In this document: positions 2,620 through 40,900 of the stretch, in pieces
Layout of the letters: each line of letters begins with the position of its first letter
Position numbering within the stretch: the stretch's first letter is position 1
Assembly (NCBI GenBank): GCA_049322915.1
Contig: JBMOPW010000014.1
Span: 890,774 to 954,773 of the forward strand
Direction of reading: 5' to 3'
DNA: 64,000 bases
Source: Candidatus Zhuqueibacterota bacterium
GTDB lineage: Bacteria > Zhuqueibacterota > Zhuqueibacteria > Thermofontimicrobiales > Thermofontimicrobiaceae
The notes under the pieces: model-generated
What the model saw: only the letters and a program-made list of their open reading frames with translations
What the model was told of the DNA's origin: nothing
The model's database searches: none
Made by a program: the position numbers and the translations under genes

Positions 2620-2857
2620 CAGACATTCGCGGCTGTATTCGAAGACGTGTCGTTCGCCATCATCTGTGTGGGACAAATTCGTTCGCCAGAGTCCCGGCTT
2701 TCTGCTGCGCTCTCCGCTCAAATCTATCCCCACACCATTGATTCCCTTTGCAGAAAATCCCAAATTGATTCGCTGAAAAAAGGCATGGCTGACTCGCAAA
2801 CCAGGAGTGAAATTGCCCTGACCGGGAACGTCGCCTGGTGCGGTTTTCATGTGCGCG

Positions 2858-4189
2858 CTACAATAAATTGCTCGCCAGGTCTGCCAACTCGGAGCGCTCG
2901 CCCTTTTCCAGGTTGATGTGCGCGTAGAGTTTTTGCCCCTGCATCTTTTCGATGAGATAGCTCAGCCCGTTGGACTGGCTGTCCAGATAGGGATGGTCAA
3001 TCTGAAAGATATCGCCGGTGAATACCATTTTGGTGCCCTCGCCGGCGCGCGTGATGATGGTCTTCACTTCGTGAGGCGTCAGGTTCTGGGCTTCATCCAC
3101 AATGAAATAGACTTTCACCAGACTGCGACCGCGAATATAGGAGAGCGGCGATATGACCAGTTTCTCTTCATCTAAAAATTCTTCAATGCGCTTGTGTTTT
3201 TGATCGGACTTTGAAAATTGATTTTTTATCACACCGAGATTGTCGTATAAAGGCTGCATGTATGGGTCTAATTTTGATTTGATATCGCCGGGCAAAAAAC
3301 CAATATCTTTGTTGCTCAGCGGGACCACCGGTCGGGCCAGGAAAATCTGGTGGTAATACTTCCGCTTGTCGATGGCCGCGGCGAGCGCCAATAGCGTTTT
3401 TCCTGTGCCAGCCTTGCCCGAGATGGAGACCAACTGAATGTCGGTATTTGTCAATGCATTCAGGGCAAAGGTCTGCTCTGCATTTCTGGGCGTGATGCCA
3501 TAGACAGGCATTTTATCGACGCGCTTGATTTTGCTCTCAGCGGAATCGTAGGTGGCCAGCGCCGATTTCTTCCCGCTGCGCATGATGAGAAATTCATTGG
3601 GCAGGAGGTTATTTTCCGATCCTAATTCTTTCACATCAATTTCAAACGGCAGTTCGTACATTCGGTCGATGAGTTCATTGGGCAAATTATCGATCACCCT
3701 TCTGCCCGTGTACAGCGCGGACACATCCTTCACGTGATCGGTGGTGTAGTCCTGCGCCCTCAGTCCGATGGCCTTGGCCTTCATGCGCAAATTCACATCC
3801 TTGGAAACGATAATCACCTGCTTGGTCGGGTGTTCCCTGGCCATCAGATATGCCGTGTTCAGAATGTGATGGTCCGGCTTGTGCAGTGAAAAATTGAATT
3901 TCAAATCGTTGTGAAATTCCCGCTCCAACTGAATGGAAATTTTCCCCAGATTGGGACCGATGGTGACGCCGCCGGAAAATAATTTATCACCACTCAGGGC
4001 ATCCAGCGAGCGAAGGAATTCCCGGGCGTGGTAGTTGAGCGTTTCATTGCCCTTTTTGAATTGATCTAATTCTTCCAGTACGGTGATTGGAATGACGATG
4101 TCATTCTCCTGGAACTGGTTCATGCAGGAACTATCGTGGAGAATGACATTGGTATCCAATACAAAAAACTTCTTCGTGCTTTTGGCCAT
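2858..4189 (-). CDS. PIN-domain/PhoH-family ATPase fusion (PhoH2/YlaK type)
   Basis: N-terminal PIN motifs FVLDTNVILHD..VLEELD and SKDVNLRMKA; Walker A GKAGTGKT; GFLPG, YIRGRS, IVDEAQN, TRAG and GDIFQID. Confidence 0.92.
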   Translation of the reverse strand: MAKSTKKFFVLDTNVILHDSSCMNQFQENDIVIPITVLEELDQFKKGNETLNYHAREFLRSLDALSGDKLFSGGVTIGPNLGKISIQLEREFHNDLKFNFSLHKPDHHILNTAYLMAREHPTKQVIIVSKDVNLRMKAKAIGLRAQDYTTDHVKDVSALYTGRRVIDNLPNELIDRMYELPFEIDVKELGSENNLLPNEFLIMRSGKKSALATYDSAESKIKRVDKMPVYGITPRNAEQTFALNALTNTDIQLVSISGKAGTGKTLLALAAAIDKRKYYHQIFLARPVVPLSNKDIGFLPGDIKSKLDPYMQPLYDNLGVIKNQFSKSDQKHKRIEEFLDEEKLVISPLSYIRGRSLVKVYFIVDEAQNLTPHEVKTIITRAGEGTKMVFTGDIFQIDHPYLDSQSNGLSYLIEKMQGQKLYAHINLEKGERSELADLASNLL

Positions 4190-9875: not shown

Positions 9876-10940
9876 TTGAGAAAACGTTTACATCATGTAA
9901 ATGCCACGATCAAAGATGTTGCCAAAGCTGCTGCGGTGTCCACGGCGACTGTTTCGCGGGTGTATAACAAGCCGGAATCAGTCAACGAAGAAACCCGGCG
10001 TAAAGTCCTGAGTGCAGCTCAGGCGTTGAATTATTCTCCCCAAATTGCTGCCCGCGCTCTCAGTCTGCAACGCATGAATATCATCGGTGTTATCCTCCCT
10101 GAATTAGGCGGAGAATTTTTCTCGGAATTAATTCGCAGCATTGACCTCGTCGCTGCCCAGCACAACTACCACATCATCATTTCCACATCCCACAGTCATC
10201 GCAATGAAGTCGAACTCCTGCTAAGTTTAATGGGTCAGGGGCTGGTCGACGGTCTGATTTTAATGGTGCCGGTTCTAGGACGAATCAGATCCGAGTCATT
10301 TCCCAATGTGAATATTCCCATCATTTTGCTGAATCTCCCGAATGAAGGGGACAAGTACATTCAGATCAATGTGGATAATGTTCGCGGAGCTTATCTTGTG
10401 ACCAAACATTTAGTCGATCATGGGTATCCATCCATTGCCATGATTCGGGGGCCGAGAGGCAATTTCGATGCGGACATGCGGGAGAAAGGTTTTCTCAAGG
10501 CGCTGCGTGAAAATAATATAAGCGAAAAAAGCGATGGCCAAAGCTATTTGGAGCGCGGCGATTTTACGCAACGCTCCGGCTATCTGGCCATGATCCGTCT
10601 GCTCAGCATGCCGAACCGGCCGCGCGCCGTGTTTGCCGCCAACGACGAAATGGCTGTGGGCGCGTTTGAAGCCGCAGGGCAGTATGGCATCTCGGTTCCG
10701 GATCAGGTTGCGATAGTCGGGTTTGATGACATCAGCATCAGTTCCATCATTCATCCCGGACTGACTACTGTGCATCTGCCTGTCAATGATCTTGGTGTGA
10801 CCGCCGCTGAAAAAGTGATCGCTGCAATCGAGAATGATGAACAGACGGTTAACTCTCCTGAAAATATAGTATTGCCTACCAGCATTGTCATTCGTGAATC
10901 ATGTGGATGTATTAATCATAATCGCTATCATTCATTTTAA
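9876..10940 (+). CDS. LacI-family transcriptional regulator
   Basis: HTH TIKDVAKAAAVSTATVSRV; periplasmic-binding-fold motifs AVFAANDEMAVG, VPDQVAIVGFDD, LTTV and IRESCG. TTG start. Confidence 0.95.
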   Translation: MRKRLHHVNATIKDVAKAAAVSTATVSRVYNKPESVNEETRRKVLSAAQALNYSPQIAARALSLQRMNIIGVILPELGGEFFSELIRSIDLVAAQHNYHIIISTSHSHRNEVELLLSLMGQGLVDGLILMVPVLGRIRSESFPNVNIPIILLNLPNEGDKYIQINVDNVRGAYLVTKHLVDHGYPSIAMIRGPRGNFDADMREKGFLKALRENNISEKSDGQSYLERGDFTQRSGYLAMIRLLSMPNRPRAVFAANDEMAVGAFEAAGQYGISVPDQVAIVGFDDISISSIIHPGLTTVHLPVNDLGVTAAEKVIAAIENDEQTVNSPENIVLPTSIVIRESCGCINHNRYHSF

Positions 10941-32319: not shown

Positions 32320-33351
32320 TCATTGAGCATACAATTCTTTCATGGACTGTTCCATGTGTTCAATGAGATGGCATCGGACCGAACGATCGGCCATGAGGAT
32401 GGCGTTTTTAATGGCTTTGGCTTTGGACCGGCCATGGGCTTTTATCACCAGTTTCTGAAAACCGAGGATGGGAGCGCCGCCGTATTCAGAATAATCCATT
32501 CGCTTTTTGAGCTTTTTCAATACAGGAGCTAACATGGTCATGCCGAGCCGGGACAGGAGGCTCTTCTTCCATATCCTCTTGCCGGTTTTTATGGACATCT
32601 CCGCCACCCCTTCGAGGGTTTTTAGCACAATATTTCCAACCAACCCTTCCGTGATGATGACGTCTGCAATACCCCGCATGATGTCCTTACCTTCAATATT
32701 GCCAATGAATTCAATGCCTTTGATGTGTTTCAACGTCCGATTGGTCTCGACAAGGACTTCGTGGCCTTTGGTATCCTCCTCGCCAATATTGAGCAGGCCA
32801 ACTCTGGGATGTTCGATGTTGATGACCTCTTTGGCGTATTGAACTCCCATGAACGCAAAACTGACGAGTTGATTCACCGTGCAGTTTAATGTGGCGCCGA
32901 CATCCAGCATGATGGATATGCCTGGATCGCCGTGTTTCTTGCGCACGGACGGAAGGACGGCAGCCAGCACACCGCGTTCAATGCCCGGCATTCGCGGGAT
33001 GAATTTGGAGCAGGACAGAATGGTCGCTCCTGTGTTGCCCGCGCTGACTAAAGCGTCTCCTTTGTCATCGCGAATCAATTGCGCGGCGACATTGATGGAT
33101 GCATCGGTTTTTTCATTGACAGATTCTTTCGGCTTGTCATCCATCGTGATGATTTCGGATGCATGGACAATTTCCCATCGGTCGGCAGGGATTTTGGCAT
33201 TGATAATCAGAGGTTTTATGTCGTGTTCGCGACCAACAAACAGACAGTAAATATCATCGTTTTCGGTACAGGCGGTGGCTGCTCCATGAATAATTTCCAG
33301 AGGCGCGTTGTCTCCGCCCATCGCATCGATGACAATACGGTTATGAGGCAT
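32320..33351 (-). CDS. plsX: Phosphate acyltransferase PlsX
   Basis: IVIDAMGGDNAP, VSAGNTGA, LLNIGEEDTKG, FIGNIEG, YGGAPILG and KAHGRS. Confidence 0.9.
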   Translation of the reverse strand: MPHNRIVIDAMGGDNAPLEIIHGAATACTENDDIYCLFVGREHDIKPLIINAKIPADRWEIVHASEIITMDDKPKESVNEKTDASINVAAQLIRDDKGDALVSAGNTGATILSCSKFIPRMPGIERGVLAAVLPSVRKKHGDPGISIMLDVGATLNCTVNQLVSFAFMGVQYAKEVINIEHPRVGLLNIGEEDTKGHEVLVETNRTLKHIKGIEFIGNIEGKDIMRGIADVIITEGLVGNIVLKTLEGVAEMSIKTGKRIWKKSLLSRLGMTMLAPVLKKLKKRMDYSEYGGAPILGFQKLVIKAHGRSKAKAIKNAILMADRSVRCHLIEHMEQSMKELYAQ

Positions 33352-33883
33352 TTTTTTCCCTTATTGGTGAGTATCCATCTCGATAATTACGCGTTTTGAA
33401 ATACAATCGGTCTCGCGGTTTCTACGGGATCAAGGATACAGATGAATGCTACATGATTCCGTTAGATTTTCATAAATGAATCTGACATACGCACGGAGTT
33501 TTTTAGAATGAAATTTTAACGGAACTGGTTCCATGATTTCCCAATCGCCTAAATCAACAGTCATCAGAACGCTTTTCTCCGTTGCTAAAGATAAGAAAAA
33601 TAATTTTGAGATTCAATAAATATTTCAGCGTAATAGTTGAACAGACGGTTTTCTATCACGATGTTTTAGATGATGGAGTAGAGGTGCAATCGTCTCCTTT
33701 CGTTGCAGGAAGAAGAATTCAAAAGGGCAAGCCGATGAGATAGATCGGGACGTGCACTGGCAACTCGTCCCATGTCCGGCAATGTCGAATGAACATGGTG
33801 TTTCGAGCTACAGTCCAGGATGTCGTTTAAAGTTCGCTGGTGAAAAACCATGAGATAGAGTTACAGGTTGCTTCCCGGATTCA

Positions 33884-35731
33884 TCATTTTTCATCATCGG
33901 GGTGCATCGGTCTCGGAGCCTTTTCACAATGGAGAATTTTTCTTGTTATTTCTTTATCTTCGATGAGTTCGGTAATCTGACTTACCGATAACCAGCGCGG
34001 TTGTCGGCTATAGTGTTTACCTGTGACATTATCGATGACGAGACTGACGAGCTGTTCGGTGACTCGTGATGATGCTTTAAATTTTTCAGGGAAAACAATA
34101 TGTTCGGAAAGCTGCTCCATGGTTGGATAGTGGGATAGCACAATCCGAAAATTGGCATTGGCCAGCAATGCAAAATTTTCATCATCCGCATCCTGATTTT
34201 GACGGGGCGCAACGCCGATGTTGACTGAAACCATATTGTGCACGATGAACAAATCTAACAGGGTGGGCAGAAACAAGGGCTCGGTTTTGAGCAAGGGGAA
34301 TCCGGTGCGAAGCTCAGCCGTGTTGTTGATCAGCACGGAGTTGAATGGCCTTTGCAACTCATTCACTTCGCCGATGATGGTCTCGATGACATTGAAACAT
34401 TCCTCAGGCGCTAATTGACCAATTTTAAACGAAGTGACTGTGACCAATGGCGTGTCAGGTGGATACTTATCCGGCATGTCGATTATACCGTAGCAGGTGT
34501 GCCAGAATTTGGTCTGACTGCCAGCGAGTTTTAGTTTGATTTCTTTCAGTGACATGAAATCTTTATTGAATTCAGTCCAGGCAATTCCCTTGAATCCCAG
34601 GTCGCTTGCGCCTCCGAAATTGATGACCAATAAATTGGGGAATTTTTCATCTGATAATTTGCCCATTGCCAGATTCAAACCCAGCGCTAATTTATGGGTG
34701 CCGTTCGGGCCAATGATCGCTATGCAGGAGTTCGGCTTTATCCGATCGCTATTGAGAATGAGGCCGAGATCCTTCTCGGTCTGATTGTCGATTTTATACA
34801 CAACGGAATCTGGCAATTGCGTTTGTCTAGCTGCCCGCACTTTAGATAAAACGTAGTGAATGGATGGGTAGACGACCAACCCTTTACGCAGGTTAGATTT
34901 AATGCCTACGGCAATGGGTTTGGTACGAATTTTGTAGAGATGGCGCCCTAACGCCTGACGGCATTTTCTGGATTTAATGATTTCCAGAAAGTATTGCAGA
35001 TAGCCGGTCTGACTGTCTTTCGTCAGGTCGATCACGACATCGGCTAAGAACTTAGTACATTCGAATGTGACCTCCTCTTCCTCGAGCGAATAATTGGGAT
35101 AGCGTTCCAGCGTGATGATCCCGGGAACATGGTAGTTTCTCAATAATGAAAAAAGATGATAAATTTCATGCCGCAACAGAGGGCGACCCGCAAAAGCGGT
35201 GAGACTGTCTATCACGAACAGGATGAAATTGTGCTCGTCAATTGAAGAGACCAGTTCGAGGACATGATTCAATTCGGAGATGCGCTGATCGTAAATGCTG
35301 CCTTCTTCTTTGCCCGAAAAGGGGCGAGGCGAGAAATGGCAGAAATAGATGGTGTTATCATTGGTAAATTCTAAATTTTCATCAAAAGTGGCAAGATCGA
35401 TGAAATCGATTTCGAGTTCATTCTTTTCATCGAAACAACTGAAGTGCTCTGATACGCTTTTTAACGATTGATAGGTCTGCTCCAGACTGTAGAAAAACAC
35501 AAACCATTTTGCATTGGCCGTGGCTGAATGGGCAATTTGCAGCGCCAGCGTCGTCTTGCCAGTCCCTGTAGTGCCTTCGATGACGAGGATGGGGGTTTCC
35601 AGATCGGTGCGAATTTCTCCTTCACCGATGTACAAGCCGCCGTTCTTTTCATCATCGCTGCGATCCTGGGAGAGGAGGTCGTCCAGATGAGGGATGCCAG
35701 TGGAAAGATAGATTTTTTTTGTTTTGTTCAT
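33884..35731 (-). CDS. Two-domain KaiC/RAD55-like RecA-superfamily ATPase (second domain degenerate)
   Basis: STGIPHLDDLL, Walker A GTTGTGKT, FYSLEQ, Walker B VIDS, ADVVIDL and LEIIKSR. The second domain has GPNGTHKL in place of GxxGxGKT. Confidence 0.8.
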   Translation of the reverse strand: MNKTKKIYLSTGIPHLDDLLSQDRSDDEKNGGLYIGEGEIRTDLETPILVIEGTTGTGKTTLALQIAHSATANAKWFVFFYSLEQTYQSLKSVSEHFSCFDEKNELEIDFIDLATFDENLEFTNDNTIYFCHFSPRPFSGKEEGSIYDQRISELNHVLELVSSIDEHNFILFVIDSLTAFAGRPLLRHEIYHLFSLLRNYHVPGIITLERYPNYSLEEEEVTFECTKFLADVVIDLTKDSQTGYLQYFLEIIKSRKCRQALGRHLYKIRTKPIAVGIKSNLRKGLVVYPSIHYVLSKVRAARQTQLPDSVVYKIDNQTEKDLGLILNSDRIKPNSCIAIIGPNGTHKLALGLNLAMGKLSDEKFPNLLVINFGGASDLGFKGIAWTEFNKDFMSLKEIKLKLAGSQTKFWHTCYGIIDMPDKYPPDTPLVTVTSFKIGQLAPEECFNVIETIIGEVNELQRPFNSVLINNTAELRTGFPLLKTEPLFLPTLLDLFIVHNMVSVNIGVAPRQNQDADDENFALLANANFRIVLSHYPTMEQLSEHIVFPEKFKASSRVTEQLVSLVIDNVTGKHYSRQPRWLSVSQITELIEDKEITRKILHCEKAPRPMHPDDEK

Positions 35732-35928
35732 TTCGCTGCCCCTTTTTGATTGTGGGTTAAAACGTGTCAGGGCTAAAGCCCGGATCCCCTTGTCTTCCGG
35801 TTAGTGTCCGCCATGAATGTCGGAGCAATTCATGGAGAGAAACCATAGCCCGGGCGCGGATGATGGCCTCAATTCTTTAAAACAGGGGATCTGTCATCTG
35901 CCAAATTTATCGGTTATCCGCCCGCACT

Positions 35929-37212
35929 TTATTTTTTGAAGCTCGAATAATCGCACCCAAATGCTTTGTAGATTGCATTAATTTTTTCCCGATTCAGCGT
36001 TATTTTCAGATGATCGTTGGGGTAGAAGGTGATGTAACATTCCGGAGTCACAAAATTCATCTGCTGGACAATCCATTTTTCCCGTTCAGTCAGAATGTAT
36101 CCGACTTTCGCTTCCAGGGACTTCCAATGGAAAACATCATGCCCCATACTGCCAAGAGACATTCTGACGATGGCATCCAACAATTCCTGAACGCCTGGAC
36201 GCTTATCCTTCTTACCTTTTTCAAAAATAGTATTCAGGGTGGTTGGCTTCGTTTTGTTTTCTGCCTTGCTATCGCTCAGCCTGACCAAAAGTTTATTACG
36301 GTGCATAAAAAAAACATGATTAAATGCGATGCCTTCCTCTTTCAGTAATTCTCCCCAGTTTGCCAGAACTACGTTGACACTTTCTTTCATCCTGTTCAAT
36401 TTTGCTATCTCAAAACTGTCCAAAGTTTTTGTCATGTTCAGTACCTGAGTTTCATCTTTATTTTCAGCAGTATCGGTAGTATCGGTCGCTGCAGCATCGG
36501 TTTGATAGAATGCCGGGATGTGAAGGATGATGCATTCGCCTTGCAGACAAAACTCGACATCTTCGACAAAGCGACGGACACCTTTGACCAACTGAATGCT
36601 GGAAAATTTTGTTATTCTATCGTAAAGGTATTCCTGTAATGAACGGGTCCAGACATTTTCAGTCTCGTCGGCAATACGTAAAATTGCAGAGATGAAAGGA
36701 ATTCTCAACCGGCCATAGGGCTCTAAAGAAAACATCTGATAGTTTCGAATATTTTTGTCGTGCGCAAATGGATTTTCAACGCCATGATACCAGGAGACGA
36801 GTGCGCAGTACTTGGCAATGCGCTCATCCGGCAAACCCAATTCCGCCCAGCATTCTTCGATGATGCGCCGACTCTCTTCCTGATGATGGACTACCGGGTA
36901 ATCCCGCTTTTCCCTGGGGGGAAGCAATAACAGCTTGCCGATGTCGTGCAGAAAGATTGAGCTGAGCAGAAGAAATATTTCGCCAGCACTGAAATCTTCC
37001 TTGATCTGGTCCGGGATCATTTTGTTGGCGTTGCGCTCGACGTTCAACAAATGAGGGTAGCCGGAATGGGAGCCCAGGTCGAAGCTTAACAACGGCACCC
37101 ATTCTTCAATGCCCTTTTGTTTAATGTCTCCCAGTTTTGAAAAAAGCTCGGGATCTTTTTCTTGCAAAATGGTTGCAAAGGTTCGCTTCGTTTCAAAACG
37201 CGTGTCCATCAT
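35929..37212 (-). CDS. HD-superfamily phosphohydrolase, HD-CE-like, with an uncharacterised C-terminal region
   Basis: H..H (HSGYPHLLNV), LLLSSIFLHDIGK, HHQEES, WYHG and ILRIADE. AGAAAGGA RBS before ATG 37212. Confidence 0.75.
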   Translation of the reverse strand: MMDTRFETKRTFATILQEKDPELFSKLGDIKQKGIEEWVPLLSFDLGSHSGYPHLLNVERNANKMIPDQIKEDFSAGEIFLLLSSIFLHDIGKLLLLPPREKRDYPVVHHQEESRRIIEECWAELGLPDERIAKYCALVSWYHGVENPFAHDKNIRNYQMFSLEPYGRLRIPFISAILRIADETENVWTRSLQEYLYDRITKFSSIQLVKGVRRFVEDVEFCLQGECIILHIPAFYQTDAAATDTTDTAENKDETQVLNMTKTLDSFEIAKLNRMKESVNVVLANWGELLKEEGIAFNHVFFMHRNKLLVRLSDSKAENKTKPTTLNTIFEKGKKDKRPGVQELLDAIVRMSLGSMGHDVFHWKSLEAKVGYILTEREKWIVQQMNFVTPECYITFYPNDHLKITLNREKINAIYKAFGCDYSSFKK

Positions 37213-37498
37213 GAGTTCCTTTCTTTTAATGGTGCGCGGTGAACTGAAGTCGCAATGCGAGAGGTCCAACTAAGAAGGCGAGTTGATTTGCCAGGACTCA
37301 TTCCGTAATAAAGCCGTCAGGGAAAAGAGGAGGATCGATGTGTGGACGAGTCAACAGATTGATTGATAATGGGAAATAACCAATGTTAATATAACTGAAG
37401 CGTCTGTAAAAGTCAACCATATTTTTTCGAACAAACGTAGTTTTAATGCGATTATATTGGGAGATTCAATGGGCATGGGACAAGTTTTTAGTTCCAAT

Positions 37499-37527
37499 AA
37501 AAAAGCCCACAGTTCGTGGGCTTTTTT
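37499..37527. terminator. Bidirectional intrinsic terminator downstream of tRNA-Thr
   Basis: AAAAAAGCCCAC-AGTTC-GTGGGCTTTTTT. Confidence 0.85.
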
Positions 37528-37538
37528 CGGCATTGCTG

Positions 37539-37611
<73 letters not shown>

Positions 37612-37642
37612 AAATATAACTATCCTGATTATAAAACTTTAT

Positions 37643-37706
37643 CCGCCGACCTATCCGCCATTTTCGAAACGGATTGCTCTACCAGCTGAGCTACGGTGGC
37701 AAATAT
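37643..37706 (-). pseudogene. Partial tandem copy of tRNA-Thr (5' half) with a replaced anticodon arm
   Basis: Reverse complement: ATATTT GCCACCGTAGCTCAGCTGGTAGAGCAA TCCGTTTCGAAAATGGCGGA TAGGTCGGCGG. It has no T-loop or 3' acceptor strand. Confidence 0.75.
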
Positions 37707-37803
37707 TAATGCTCTGATTTTCAATGTATCGGCCACGACCTTTTCGCCGGATACGATTGCGTTTGCATTCCGGCTTTGGGCTGTTGTCAAAATAACGGGC
37801 ACT

Positions 37804-37832
37804 AATATATGAAAAACGAAACTAAAAGTCAA
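37804..37832 (-). promoter_or_regulatory. Sigma70-type promoter for the tRNA-Thr transcript
   Basis: Reverse complement TTGACT, 17-bp spacer, TATATT. Confidence 0.65.
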
Positions 37833-37964
37833 TAATTTTGTTGGCTGACAGCAGCCGATCCCTGAGCGGAACAACGGCTGAGACAATGAACCTGGCTCAG
37901 CCGAATGTCCGATGGATTGACCTGAAAAGGGGATGAAGTATTTAATGCATTCGTCATGCCCTTC

Positions 37965-40900
37965 TTAATGAAATGTCAGCTTCAACGTCTTTATCTCAAA
38001 CGGCCCGAATGTCAATGCCACCTGTCCTGCATTGCGTTCGAGCATCGTGTCTTTCTGCTCCATCAAATCGGTCTCAAATACGGTCGCATTCGAATGGAGC
38101 AACGTCAGTCGGGCAGTGACAGATCTGCCTCTGGGCTCGTAGCAGCGCAGGATCAGCGCATCCTCGCGCTCCGCCTTTTTGACGACTTCCACAATGATAT
38201 CCCTGTGCCCGATGGTGAATGGCAGGGTGATTCCGGCGCCGGCATAGCCCGGATAACAGGCCGGTGGCTGATTGAGTTGCAGGGCTTCAGCCCACACGCC
38301 GGATTCAATCGTGTCCTTCGCATGGGGGAAGAGACTGTAGGTGAACGAATGAAATCCCCTGTCCGCAACAGGGTCCGGCATAGTGGTCGCGCGCAGCAGG
38401 TTCAAATCAATGACATTGTCCAGAATATTGTATCCGTACTTGCAGTCGTTGAGCAGGGCCACGCCGTAGTCCCTGTCCGCCAGATCAGCGAAACGATGGC
38501 CCACCACTTCGAATTTGGCTCTGTCCCAACTGGTATTACGGTGCGTGCTCCGTTTCAATAAGCCGTATTGAATTTCAAAGACAGCGACGTCGGAAAAAAC
38601 ATTCACCGGAAAGGCGACGCGCAGCATCCGATGCGTTTCCTGCCAATTGACTTCAGTCTCAAAATCAAGGCGCTTGCTGTTGGCGGCAAGGTAAATGCGC
38701 TGGGTGATGTGCGAATGGCCAATTGTCAGTTTCTGGGCGAATCCCTGCCGAAGCGGTCCCTGACAGAGCCATTCCTGGCGCTCAACGCGGGCTTGTTCCA
38801 GCAGTTGGTTTTCATAAAAAATATCAATATCCCATGCATCCCAATTTGCCGGGCGGTCTTCGTACAGACACAACCGATTGCCGCTCGCTTTTGTCGCCAG
38901 AATTTCTCTCTGGCTCTCTTTGTCGTATGCGCGCTGGATGACGCCGGCGTCAGTGAATTCGTATCGAACCAATTCGTTCTCCAGAATGAATCGGTCGGAA
39001 TCGAGCCGCGATGGGCGATTGGCGTTTTGCCGGCCTTTGCGAACCGTGACGGAACGGAACGGGGGAATTTCGACGAGCATGATCGATCCCTGATTCTCAG
39101 CTTGCACCGGCATGGATTGGCCGGCGTCATCCACGATGTCGTAACCCTGCCAGGAATCAGGCAGGACAATGGGTCTGGAATAGATGCAGGAAAGCGAATT
39201 GAACACAGTCATGGCCTGATCATCGTTATCAAACAGAAGATCACCAGCGGCCCGGGCGAGTTGACTGGCCTCAGCGTGCAGCCAGGCGTAGTCTTCGCGA
39301 CATTGCTCGTAGACCGGGGTGATGCTCGATCCGGGAATGATGTCGTGGAATTGATTGAGCAGCACCTTTTTCCACATTGCGTCGAACTGCCGGGATGGAT
39401 AATTTTTCAATGGTAACAGGGCATAGAGGATTTCCAACTCGCGCAATTTCAATTCCATAAAACGGTTCATTTTCTTGTTGTACGCCTGAGTTGTCAGCGT
39501 GCCGCGATGCAGTTCAAAATACAATTCGCCCACCCATCGCGGCAGCAGGTCTTTGTTTTCAGCCAAATAATTGAGAAAGTCCTGTGCCGCGCCGAACTGC
39601 ACTTTCGGGCAATTCTCCAGTTCAGCCAGGCGGCGGCCGGTTTCCAGCATCTCTTCGGTTGGCCCGCAGCCGCCGTCGCCGATGCCGAAGAGGGTGAGGA
39701 ATTGATCCAGGTAATCATGCTCGGCAAAATTTTCCTGAGCATAGATGAGTTTGGATGGCCGCAACTCGCTGCCGTAGTTATCCTCCGGCGGAAAATGGGT
39801 GATGACCTCGCTACCATCGATGCCCCGCCAGATGAATGTGTGATTGGGCAATTTATTGAACTGGTTCCATGAAAGTTTCTGGGTGACGAAAAAATCAATG
39901 CCGGCCTTTTTCAAAATTTGAGGCAATGCCGCGCTGTAGCCAAACACATCCGGCAGCCACAGATTCTTCACGTCGATATTGAATTCGTCCTGATAAAAAT
40001 TCTTGCCGTGGAGAATTTGCCGCACCAGTGACTCGCCGCTGATGATATTGCAATCGGCTTCGACCCACATGCCGCCCTGGACTTCCCAGCGCCCCTCAGC
40101 GATTCGCGCTTTGATTTTTTCGTAAAGCGACGGGTAGTTCTCTTTGACGAAAAGATAGTGCTGCGGCATGGATGCGCCGAACACATAGCCTGGATATTTT
40201 TCAATCAGTTGCAGTTGCGAAGAAAATGTCCGGGCGCATTTGCGGATGGTCTCGTGAATCGGCCAGAGCCAGGCCGTGTCCAGATGGGCGTGCCCCACGG
40301 CGCGCGTGGTCAAATCCGAGGCGCAGCCGGGTTTTTCCAGTTCCGGCTTCAGGACATCCCGCGTCCGTTGCACAGACCCTTCGTCAGGCTGGAAGCAATC
40401 GATGGCGCGCATCAACGCCCGCAGGATTCGGGCGCGGCGAACGTTTTTCTCCGGCAACGCCCTCATCAGATCGTTCAGCACGAAACAATCCATGTACAAT
40501 TCCCAAATATCCTTTCGGAATACGGCCAGCCTGGCGTACTGAAACGCTGCCTCGTAATTGCCATAGGCGACCGGGCCCCTATCGCCCCGATCCTGTTCCA
40601 ATTGCAGCCCGAACAACTGGCCGGCAGAGCCTTCGATCCAATAGTCAATCGTCTCGCGGCCGGTCGCCCGCGCGGCAATGTCCAGCCGATCCCGACGGAA
40701 ATGATTCAGCCATAGCGAGTGAATGCTCAGCGCAGTCACAGGCGTCCCATCCTCGTCGAACACCAGACCTTCACCGCCGATATTTATCAGAGCCACGACC
40801 CGCTTTCCGCGCCAATTTTCCGGCGTTGCGCCAGTCACATGAAACCAGGCTCGCTCCCAATTTTTGCCCCAAGTTTCGCCCTGCTGAATGGGCCGATACG

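Follow-up and report, generated by a model that had tools for sequence, protein, structure and literature searches.

A conserved pairing of an HD-CE phosphohydrolase gene with a two-domain KaiC-like ATPase gene, and its possible role in biological conflict

Contig JBMOPW010000014.1 of a Candidatus Zhuqueibacterota bacterium (assembly GCA_049322915.1) was analysed over a stretch of 64,000 nucleotides (contig positions 890,774 to 954,773, forward strand; hereafter the window, numbered from its first letter). On its minus strand this window carries two neighbouring genes, one encoding an HD-CE family phosphohydrolase (the HD protein) and the other a two-domain KaiC-like ATPase (the KaiC-like protein), and it is close to certain that the two form one unit. 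The order along the minus strand is tRNA-Thr(CGT), terminator hairpin, promoter-like site, HD gene, spacer, KaiC-like gene and plsX. An earlier interpretation made from the DNA letters alone, referred to here as the sequence-only reading, had described two co-oriented genes between plsX and the terminator of tRNA-Thr(CGT) and had quoted a series of HD and KaiC motifs in their products; the open reading frames (ORFs), the tRNA and the hairpin have all been placed accordingly, and all of the quoted motifs are present in the translations. The genes and domains of the pair are as follows.

35929..37209, minus strand: HD-CE family phosphohydrolase gene, 426 amino acids from ATG 37209 (ORF and Pfam)
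36505..37209, minus strand: HD catalytic core, residues 1-235 (invariant ligand candidates and HD fold)
35932..36432, minus strand: family-specific C-terminal module of the HD protein, residues 260-426 (conservation and a weak winged-helix match)
33884..35731, minus strand: two-domain KaiC-like ATPase gene, 615 amino acids (ORF, Pfam, AlphaFold2 (AF2) model and Foldseek)
34832..35731, minus strand: N-terminal RecA/KaiC domain, residues 1-300 (complete ATPase set), with Walker A at nucleotides 35552-35575
33923..34831, minus strand: C-terminal RecA-like domain (domain 2), residues 301-603, with the P-loop GPNGTHKL at nucleotides 34688-34711

The two proteins and their predicted domains

The HD gene ends in a stop codon at 35929-35931. 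Its longest ORF, 35929-37269, would encode 446 amino acids from a TTG, and an alternative ATG at 37212 would give 427; residue numbers used here refer to the form of 426 amino acids. The Pfam family HD-CE (PF24391) matches residues 73-203 with 53.6 bits (cut-off 27), and the translation contains the motifs GSHSGYPH, LHDIGK, VHHQ, YHG and ADE. Di-metal HD enzymes are marked by a six-ligand H/HD/H/H/D pattern, and in 30 aligned HD sequences H53, H88-D89, H109, H142 and D181-E182 are invariant, together with several Trp, Arg and Lys residues. PF24391 was found in 54 of 59 homologues of the HD protein, the remaining five being fragments of 240-263 amino acids. Most of the full-length homologues align over 85-100% of the query, and the C-terminal half therefore belongs to the HD family as well.

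The AF2 model of the HD protein (predicted local distance difference test, pLDDT, 85.9; predicted template modelling score, pTM, 0.87) falls into three parts, namely the core (residues ~1-235), a disordered loop (239-258) and the C-terminal module (260-426). When the HD fold was tested with VIA-align, residues ~10-318 reached Z scores of 8-13 to many HD-fold chains. The highest was that of the PPX/GppA C-terminal domain (13.2), followed by cyclic-nucleotide phosphodiesterases (PDEs; ~10), HD-GYP proteins (9.5 and 9.3), SpoT/Mesh1 and the small alarmone hydrolases (~9) and SAMHD1 (8.3), and PgpH and V-cGAP3 were also matched. A Foldseek search of the same model against PDB gave nothing under an E value of 1e-3, and the HD profile met the PDB sequences in a single chance-level match (E 0.02). 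These matches of a predicted fold point to no one substrate.

The C-terminal module is conserved throughout the family, with W285 and W379 invariant. Residues 326-426 match the winged-helix region of the origin recognition complex (ORC) weakly in VIA-align (Z 7.8, root-mean-square deviation 2.6, 87 aligned residues), and on this predicted model the last ~100 residues of the protein look like a winged helix. We propose that the module serves as an adaptor that would contact the KaiC-like protein.

Two variations on the HD architecture were observed within the family. In most members a Cys-rich insertion lies between the HD motif and the next invariant His (alignment columns ~101-245); it carries about four conserved Cys residues, is Zn-ribbon-like, and is absent from the window protein and its closest relatives. 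In two Ignavibacteriaceae loci, the HD proteins are 774 (L005, 5687-8011) and 899 (L006, 5308-8007) amino acids long, with an insertion of ~350-480 amino acids, free of any Pfam match, between the core and the conserved C-terminal module.

The KaiC-like protein is matched by the Pfam family KaiC (PF06745) over residues 10-276 with 63.6 bits (cut-off 26.6), and its translation contains the motifs GTTGTGKT, FYSLEQ, VIDS, LEIIKSR and GPNGTHKL. Its AF2 model (pLDDT 82.1, pTM 0.82) was aligned by Foldseek to full-length KaiC over ~600-620 columns (7s67_A, E 8e-21, TM score by target 0.66), which makes it a true tandem RecA-like protein; the profile search of PDB matches KaiC through the N-terminal domain only. 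Conservation was assessed over 28 family members with 38-61% identity to the window protein. In the N-terminal domain, G53, G56, G58, K59 and T60 of Walker A, E84-Q85, D175 of Walker B, K253 and S254 are invariant. R255 of the KSR motif, which we take to be the equivalent of the KaiC arginine finger, is nearly so (at least 90%).

Domain 2 differs from this pattern in a consistent manner. The sequence-only reading had regarded its Walker A as eroded, a view that did not survive the comparison, since the GPxGTHKL loop is invariant across the 28 members and hence selected: in G341-P-N-G344-T-H346-K347-L348, the residues G341, G344, H346, K347 and L348 never vary. The AF2 model places the loop between a strand (336-341) and a helix (345-355) in a P-loop-like manner, and residues 300-596 superpose on KaiC ATPase domains with structural TM scores of 0.59-0.66. 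An invariant Leu (L348) stands where a Ser or Thr would hold Mg2+ after the Lys. At the presumed site of the catalytic Glu pair, placed by eye relative to the P-loop and lying outside the hhalign coverage, the sequence is NFGG. At the Walker B position, where hhalign sets D175 opposite N470, the window protein has Asn and other members have Asp; this alignment of domain 1 with domain 2 is weak (E 0.004, probability 8%) and was used for placing Walker B only. Over 20 other positions in domain 2 never vary either, E443, E444, C445, R529, D567 and R576 among them, so that the domain is under strong constraint, with a specialised site rather than a decayed one. From the Leu in place of Ser/Thr, the NFGG in place of the Glu pair and the Asn or Asp at Walker B, domain 2 is predicted to be probably a non-hydrolytic ligand-binding or scaffold ring. 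The earlier suggestion that the second ATPase domain acts as a sensor or scaffold is thus plausible in so far as the catalytic set is lacking, although the notion of a decayed domain that came with it has to be given up.

The protein is not the KaiC of the circadian clock, as follows from its low scores with the equivalog models (45.9 bits against 408 for NF006799 and 19.1 against 546 for TIGR02655) and from the failure to find KaiB (PF07689) in the window genome G000, which is 96.3% complete. It had been stated earlier that both kaiB and kaiA are lacking; this stands for KaiB at that level of completeness, and KaiA was not searched for.

Linkage, fusion and spread of the pair

The evidence that carries the pairing comes from loci searched by tblastn with both window proteins and counted as assessable where they included the start (5′ end) of the KaiC-like gene together with 1.2 kb or more of upstream sequence. 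In all 22 assessable loci (18 of them distinct), which represent several phyla, the KaiC-like gene is immediately preceded, on the same strand, by an HD-CE gene. The set comprises six of the seven loci from species-representative genomes (the seventh is truncated), the locus of the related genome G009 and 15 of 23 metagenome loci; L029 is a near-duplicate of L007, L032 of L010, L039 of L008 and L025 of L024. Loci that could not be assessed were either cut by a contig end (L011, L033, L034, L042 and L043) or fragments (L044 and L040). The seven genome loci (two from Ignavibacteriaceae, two from Terracidiphilus and one each from Acidobacteriaceae, Terriglobales and Bacillota) and the 23 metagenome loci were returned by family-alignment scans, a single-protein query having given none. 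Co-location of homologues elsewhere had been set beforehand as the test of a functional pair, and it holds at each of the 22 loci.

The stop and start codons of the two genes usually overlap or lie less than 15 nucleotides apart elsewhere, and the spacer of 197 nucleotides in the window is unusual. Identity to the window's HD protein and identity to its KaiC-like protein co-vary over the 18 distinct loci (Spearman 0.84, a descriptive value, as the loci are related), and 21 HD matches share with KaiC-like matches a longest contig of equal size. No third gene is common to the pair loci examined.

Fusion of the two proteins recurs among the relatives. In P0070 (997 amino acids, source Phycisphaerae), residues 3-249 match the HD protein (E 1e-25) and residues 431-986 align to the whole KaiC-like protein with 33% identity, the second P-loop having the variant form GPHGGHKF. 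HD-CE followed by KaiC in a single protein is also found in P0071, in P0077 and in an ORF of 1041 amino acids of G138, a genome of the same phylum as the window. When long relatives of domain 2 (711-1483 amino acids) were submitted to Pfam, an N-terminal HD-CE with KaiC downstream was seen in 21 of 47, and in the remaining 26 the KaiC domain follows 150-300 residues that have no Pfam match. These N-terminal extensions could be alternative effector or sensor domains. A conserved operon together with repeated fusion is strong evidence for functional, and probably physical, coupling, and the proposal of a functional pair made in the sequence-only reading is thereby borne out.

Three observations on single-protein relatives may be added. 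A 768-amino-acid relative at L052 (G091:C29, 4098-6404) has ~180 N-terminal residues that could not be assigned in place of the HD. P0224 (1128 amino acids), distantly related to domain 2 and one of the 47 long relatives, has at its end a PilZ domain, which binds c-di-GMP (E 1.6e-6). Proteins of 270-312 amino acids that match domain 2 only occur among the cluster representatives, and these may be fragments.

Physical contact was addressed by complex prediction for an orthologous pair, P0007 (residues 7-597) and P0098 (7-415), whose neighbourhood is deduced only from the equal size (5178) of their longest contig. The score was 0.57 against 0.00 for the best control, which lends the coupling weak support; at least 93% of contacts are shared between runs, and the pLDDT of the partner does not fall under 75. 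The mark for such scores is reached by 116 of 157 solved complexes and by two of 215 mismatched pairs, and scores of 0.60 or less belong to only 18 of those 157 and to both of the mismatches that passed.

The pair is a rare, accessory and patchy module that moves between distant microbes, its homologues bearing source names of both bacteria and archaea. Each protein was found in two of 41 related genomes, the same two in both cases (G000 and G009), with the genes adjacent in G009, and the pair was not found in G001, a genome of the same genus that is 94% complete; its earlier description as accessory rather than core accords with these counts. Domain 2 occurs in five of 167 genomes of the phylum, as two close copies, two fused forms and one form of 768 amino acids without HD. 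At E <= 1e-3, an exhaustive phmmer search with domain 2 alone retrieved 134 cluster representatives out of 1.84 billion (68 at E <= 1e-10 and 31 at E <= 1e-30). The source names of the homologues include Lokiarchaeota, KSB1, Terracidiphilus, Nitrososphaerales, Phycisphaerae, Ignavibacteriaceae and Bacillota. The Lokiarchaeota homologue, at 55% identity, is nearer than most bacterial ones, with the proviso that metagenome-assembled genomes may contain binning errors. Decayed or rearranged copies are also present. At L037 (2723-4931) the HD gene is followed by an ORF of 334 amino acids that holds domain 2 only (residues 286-608, with GPAGTHKL retained), the N-terminal domain being gone; at L045 (251-1703) the KaiC-like gene is cut by an insertion sequence, with a DDE_3 transposase upstream; and at L040 (3-1401) a fragment of the HD is joined to residues 145-608 of the KaiC-like protein.

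The HD-CE domain itself is more widely distributed: of the phylum's 167 genomes 38 have a match, in many cases near the threshold and in a small HD protein, whereas 14 model organisms have none. At seven loci with strong matches, HD-CE is N-terminal and is fused to HATPase_c_3 (three loci), an IF-2B-like domain (two) or NB-ARC (one), with one locus truncated; the coupling of HD-CE to NTPases to which the sequence-only reading had pointed is thus seen within the phylum, in the form of HSP90-like and STAND fusions. A further match of the canonical HD-CE region is to the C-terminal portion of RT_UG24, a PADLOC model for DRT systems (E 1e-12 and 8.5e-7), a model to which the HD of the window has no match. 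On the strength of these fusions and of the RT_UG24 match, HD-CE recurs as the N-terminal output of NTP-binding switches, and in the present case KaiC is the switch. Beside one HD-CE and HATPase_c_3 gene, at L061 (G061:C17), an adenylate/guanylate cyclase-domain gene (2695-3642, E 1.5e-15) adjoins it upstream, which may mean that nucleotide signals play a part in some HD-CE systems.

The genomic setting

The remaining features of the locus provide the context of the pair and are given here.

35732..35928, minus strand: inter-gene spacer of 197 nucleotides (ORF coordinates)
37388..37416, minus strand: promoter-like site TTGACT-17-TATATT between the tRNA terminator and the HD gene (10/12 consensus match)
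37499-37527, minus strand: tRNA terminator hairpin of 12 bp with a T-run, directly 3′ of the tRNA (context)
37538-37611, minus strand: tRNA-Thr(CGT), Rfam 67.7 bits (context, outside the module)
32320-33351, minus strand: ORF that is presumably plsX, recognised from its translation

No element was found in the spacer, a search with Rfam at E <= 0.1 over 33300-38000 having returned the tRNA alone. Eleven sites of the promoter-like kind were found against 7.0 ± 3.3 in shuffled sequences, and the site listed is a consensus match only. Neither the ~530 nucleotides between the KaiC-like gene and plsX nor the interval between tRNA-Thr and the neighbouring GH38-like gene yielded a convincing reading frame, the former having no convincing ORF and the latter no long one.

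The pair had been described as visibly AT-richer than the glycan locus. The difference is real, with a guanine plus cytosine (GC) content of 44.1% in the HD gene and 45.7% in the KaiC-like gene, against 50.5% in the window as a whole and 53-54% in the glycoside-hydrolase-like gene on either side; the drop relative to flanking genes is 5-9 points. It is nevertheless modest, given that plsX (49.4%) and a csp-like gene (39.2%) are also low. The GC drop is weak evidence of compositional foreignness, as the housekeeping neighbours csp and plsX partly share it.

Just upstream of tRNA-Thr, a 27-nucleotide exact copy of its 5′ end, covering the acceptor and D arm, lies on the minus strand (37674-37700, equal to 37585-37611) and is followed within 37640-37700 by a partial T-arm repeat (ggtcggcgg). 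Neither ARAGORN nor Rfam calls a tRNA at 37640-37700, and the element has the look of a tRNA copy, truncated and lying on the 5′ side, unlike the usual att scar.

The 3′ flank of the same tRNA is occupied differently in the sister species. In G001, at a locus (L021, G001:C141, 1576-9851) where tRNA-Thr(CGT) is present (10078-10153) and the pair absent, it carries two NACHT+FGE-sulfatase genes, with products of 1017 and 1067 amino acids, and between them a DRT-like reverse transcriptase that matches the RT/DRT models of PADLOC with E 6e-50 (UG17, E 4e-34). The difference between G000 and G001 indicates that the tRNA-Thr flank is variable, with conflict-type cargo in the sister species. The sequence-only reading had pointed to tRNA 3′ ends as hotspots for accessory genes, but the position of the pair at a tRNA proved to be particular to the window genome: nine other loci were scanned, seven of which hold the pair, and over as much as ~8 kb on each side none of them has a tRNA beside it. 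The tRNA island has been dropped as an explanation for the family, on account of the missing integrase, the missing 3′-end repeat and the missing tRNA linkage elsewhere.

Among 68 neighbours from 14 loci scanned with PADLOC, defence-like genes occur, as a raw count, at three loci. At L026 these are a McrB-like gene (PDC-M26A, E 5.6e-63) with a DUF2357/PD-(D/E)XK protein and HipA, at L031 an FRG gene (PDC-S15), and at L030 a DrmC-like PLD gene whose match is to a generic PLD domain; matches to ABC and SMC proteins among the neighbours are generic too. The association with defence islands appears weak in this sample.

Proposed role of the pair and its relation to known systems

From these data we suggest the following arrangement. 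The KaiC-like protein would form a double ring of the KaiC type, presumably hexameric, in which the N-terminal ring is the active ATPase. The C-terminal ring, through its invariant non-catalytic P-loop, may bind a phosphate-bearing ligand or act as a scaffold, and would thereby set the state of the complex. The HD-CE protein would dock on this ring, probably via its winged-helix-like C-terminal module, and its di-metal HD site would be the output, hydrolysing a nucleotide or a nucleic acid only when licensed by the ATPase. The catalytic competence of both partners is supported by the HD ligands and the ATPase motifs of the N-terminal domain, which are invariant or nearly so. Whereas the genes, motifs and folds, the obligatory linkage and fusion, and the rarity and spread across phyla are matters of observation, inference covers the hexameric state, which partner controls the other, the nature of the substrate and the role in defence.

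As to its role, the pair may be a conflict system, directed against mobile elements or of the abortive-infection type, and built in the manner of the HSP90-like and STAND-fused HD-CE effectors. A defence role is plausible in view of the rarity of the pair, its spread across phyla, the decayed copies, the company kept by HD-CE and the variable tRNA flank; and because HD-CE is fused to HSP90-like, NB-ARC and IF-2B domains within the phylum, the pair is read as a KaiC-driven variant of NTPase-plus-HD-CE effectors. That it is a self-contained, horizontally spread and ATP-gated HD-CE effector module, for which conflict or defence is the most likely role, is a conclusion on which we find the case evenly balanced. 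More tentative is the fuller proposal that the pair constitutes an immune system of bacteria and archaea, in which the ligand of the GPxGTHKL ring might be an alarm nucleotide or one derived from infection, upon which the ATPase ring might license the HD-CE effector to destroy nucleotides or nucleic acids; this is possible, and we would sooner doubt it than rely on it.

A number of findings weigh against a mobile defence module. The neighbours of the pair are mostly housekeeping genes (dxs, recJ, pckA, infB, argJ and IMPDH), and only three of the 14 loci have defence-like neighbours, with the match at L030 generic. In the clade of G009 (L020, L023, L024 and L028) the pair keeps a conserved context (MTTB ... 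aminotransferase), which indicates that it has been inherited vertically there. Searches of 72,556 plasmids and 50,697 phage records at E <= 1e-10 gave no match. The ORF list of the window contains no integrase, the other window ORFs having been left without a Pfam scan, and within 33300-37700 there is no repeat of the tRNA 3′ end, the only repeat being the copy of its 5′ half upstream. The HD fold matches favour no nuclease, since the top rows are PPX/GppA, PDEs, HD-GYP and alarmone hydrolases, and the complex score is weak and was obtained with an orthologous pair rather than with the window's own proteins. Finally, neither protein has a meaningful match in PADLOC-DB 2.0, whose coverage runs to systems described up to 2023; the best are mad8 (E 2.4e-6 over 41 P-loop residues) and the Cas3 HD (E 0.013).

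Some of the same findings would suit physiological signalling, in which the KaiC-like double ring serves as a slow timer or as an energy or nucleotide sensor and controls an HD phosphodiesterase acting on cyclic dinucleotides (c-di-NMP), cyclic mononucleotides (cNMP) or (p)ppGpp, so that the pair regulates the state of its own cell. The fold neighbours of the HD (cyclic-nucleotide PDEs, HD-GYP, SpoT/Mesh1, alarmone hydrolases, PgpH and V-cGAP3), the terminal PilZ of P0224, the prevalence of housekeeping neighbourhoods and the conserved context in the G009 clade all point in this direction, and KaiC-like ATPases were reportedly proposed as signalling hubs in an mBio paper of 2017. The pair is, however, very rare and patchy (two of 41 and five of 167 genomes), no cyclase or other messenger-making enzyme is conserved beside it in the loci examined, decayed copies exist, and the HD belongs to the HD-CE family, with its STAND and HSP90-type fusions and its resemblance to DRT effectors, and not to HD-GYP, for which there is no Pfam match. 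We consider signalling unlikely on this balance, while taking it seriously. A self-directed nucleic-acid machine appears more improbable still. Here a ring of the RecA superfamily, akin to RadA/Sms or DnaB, would feed a strand to the HD nuclease in the manner of Cas3, for repair or RNA turnover, which would fit the weak P-loop-level similarity of the N-terminal domain to DnaB, RadA and RadB, the weak Cas3 HD matches (PADLOC E 0.013 and 0.027; TIGR01596 E 0.1), the winged-helix-like C-terminus of the HD protein and the genes xseA and recJ that adjoin the pair at L005 and L006. Yet the scores are far under the cut-offs (12.6 against 43.45 bits for Cas3 HD TIGR01596 and 18 against 385 for DnaB), the whole-protein fold match is KaiC and not the helicases, the repair neighbours are confined to two near-identical Ignavibacteriaceae loci, and a core repair function would be hard to square with so rare a pair. 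As for a fortuitous adjacency of two unrelated accessory genes beside a tRNA, the spacer of 197 nucleotides, longer than elsewhere, and the tRNA flank that varies between G000 and G001 might have suggested it, but the linkage data, with 22 of 22 loci adjacent, co-varying identities and many fusions, refute it, and we attach practically no probability to it.

To return to the effector module controlled by a KaiC-like ATPase, the pair has probably not been described before. The claim that it matches no named system is upheld by PADLOC-DB 2.0, none of whose models was matched, and by the literature, in which no publication on an HD-CE and KaiC-like pair was found (supplements not covered). 'KaiC' does not occur in the accessible parts of PMC7159879 and PMC8195603, nor 'HD-CE' in those of PMC8195603, and only a viral KaiC-domain gene is mentioned in the corresponding parts of PMC13700489.

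KaiC-like ATPases occur widely beyond the cyanobacteria, for the most part with obscure functions; here one clade has an obligatory enzymatic partner, and the conserved operon and the fusions give a concrete output for a KaiC-like switch. If the pair is defensive, it introduces a new class of NTPase into immunity of the NTPase-plus-effector type and provides a handle on the HD-CE effector family; should the immune proposal be true, KaiC-like proteins would make up an immune NTPase switch class of their own beside the STAND, HSP90-like and ABC ATPases. If it signals instead, a KaiC-type timer or sensor is wired to nucleotide hydrolysis in a new way. Ligand-binding studies have an obvious target in the invariant G-x-x-G-T-H-K-L loop.

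Three groups of known systems invite comparison. Cas3 and the motor-plus-nuclease defence proteins likewise couple an HD hydrolase to an ATP-driven RecA fold, and the Cas3 HD is faintly matched; the present scores are nonetheless far under the cut-offs, the ATPase is KaiC-like and not an SF2 helicase, and the window has no CRISPR context. Cyanobacterial KaiC (7s67, 2gbl) is similar in its tandem RecA-like domains, which align over ~600-620 columns with TM scores by target of 0.64-0.69, and in an N-terminal domain that has the full Walker A and B, the catalytic Glu and the KSR motif. It differs in that the identity is 12-16%, that only 19-46 bits are reached with the clock models, whose cut-offs are 408-546, and KaiB was not found in the genome, that the second domain here has GPxGTHKL for GxxxxGK[ST] and no catalytic Glu, and that the partner is an HD enzyme. 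The fusions of HD-CE with HSP90-like, STAND and IF-2B modules share with the pair the HD subfamily, the order of an N-terminal HD followed by an NTP-binding module, and a patchy distribution. In the pair, by contrast, the NTPase is of the two-domain KaiC/RecA type, presumably a ring, and not GHKL or STAND; in this genome it is encoded by a separate gene, and the HD protein carries a C-terminal module of its own of ~165 amino acids. The KaiC-fused relatives, for their part, keep the same domain order as these HD-CE fusions.

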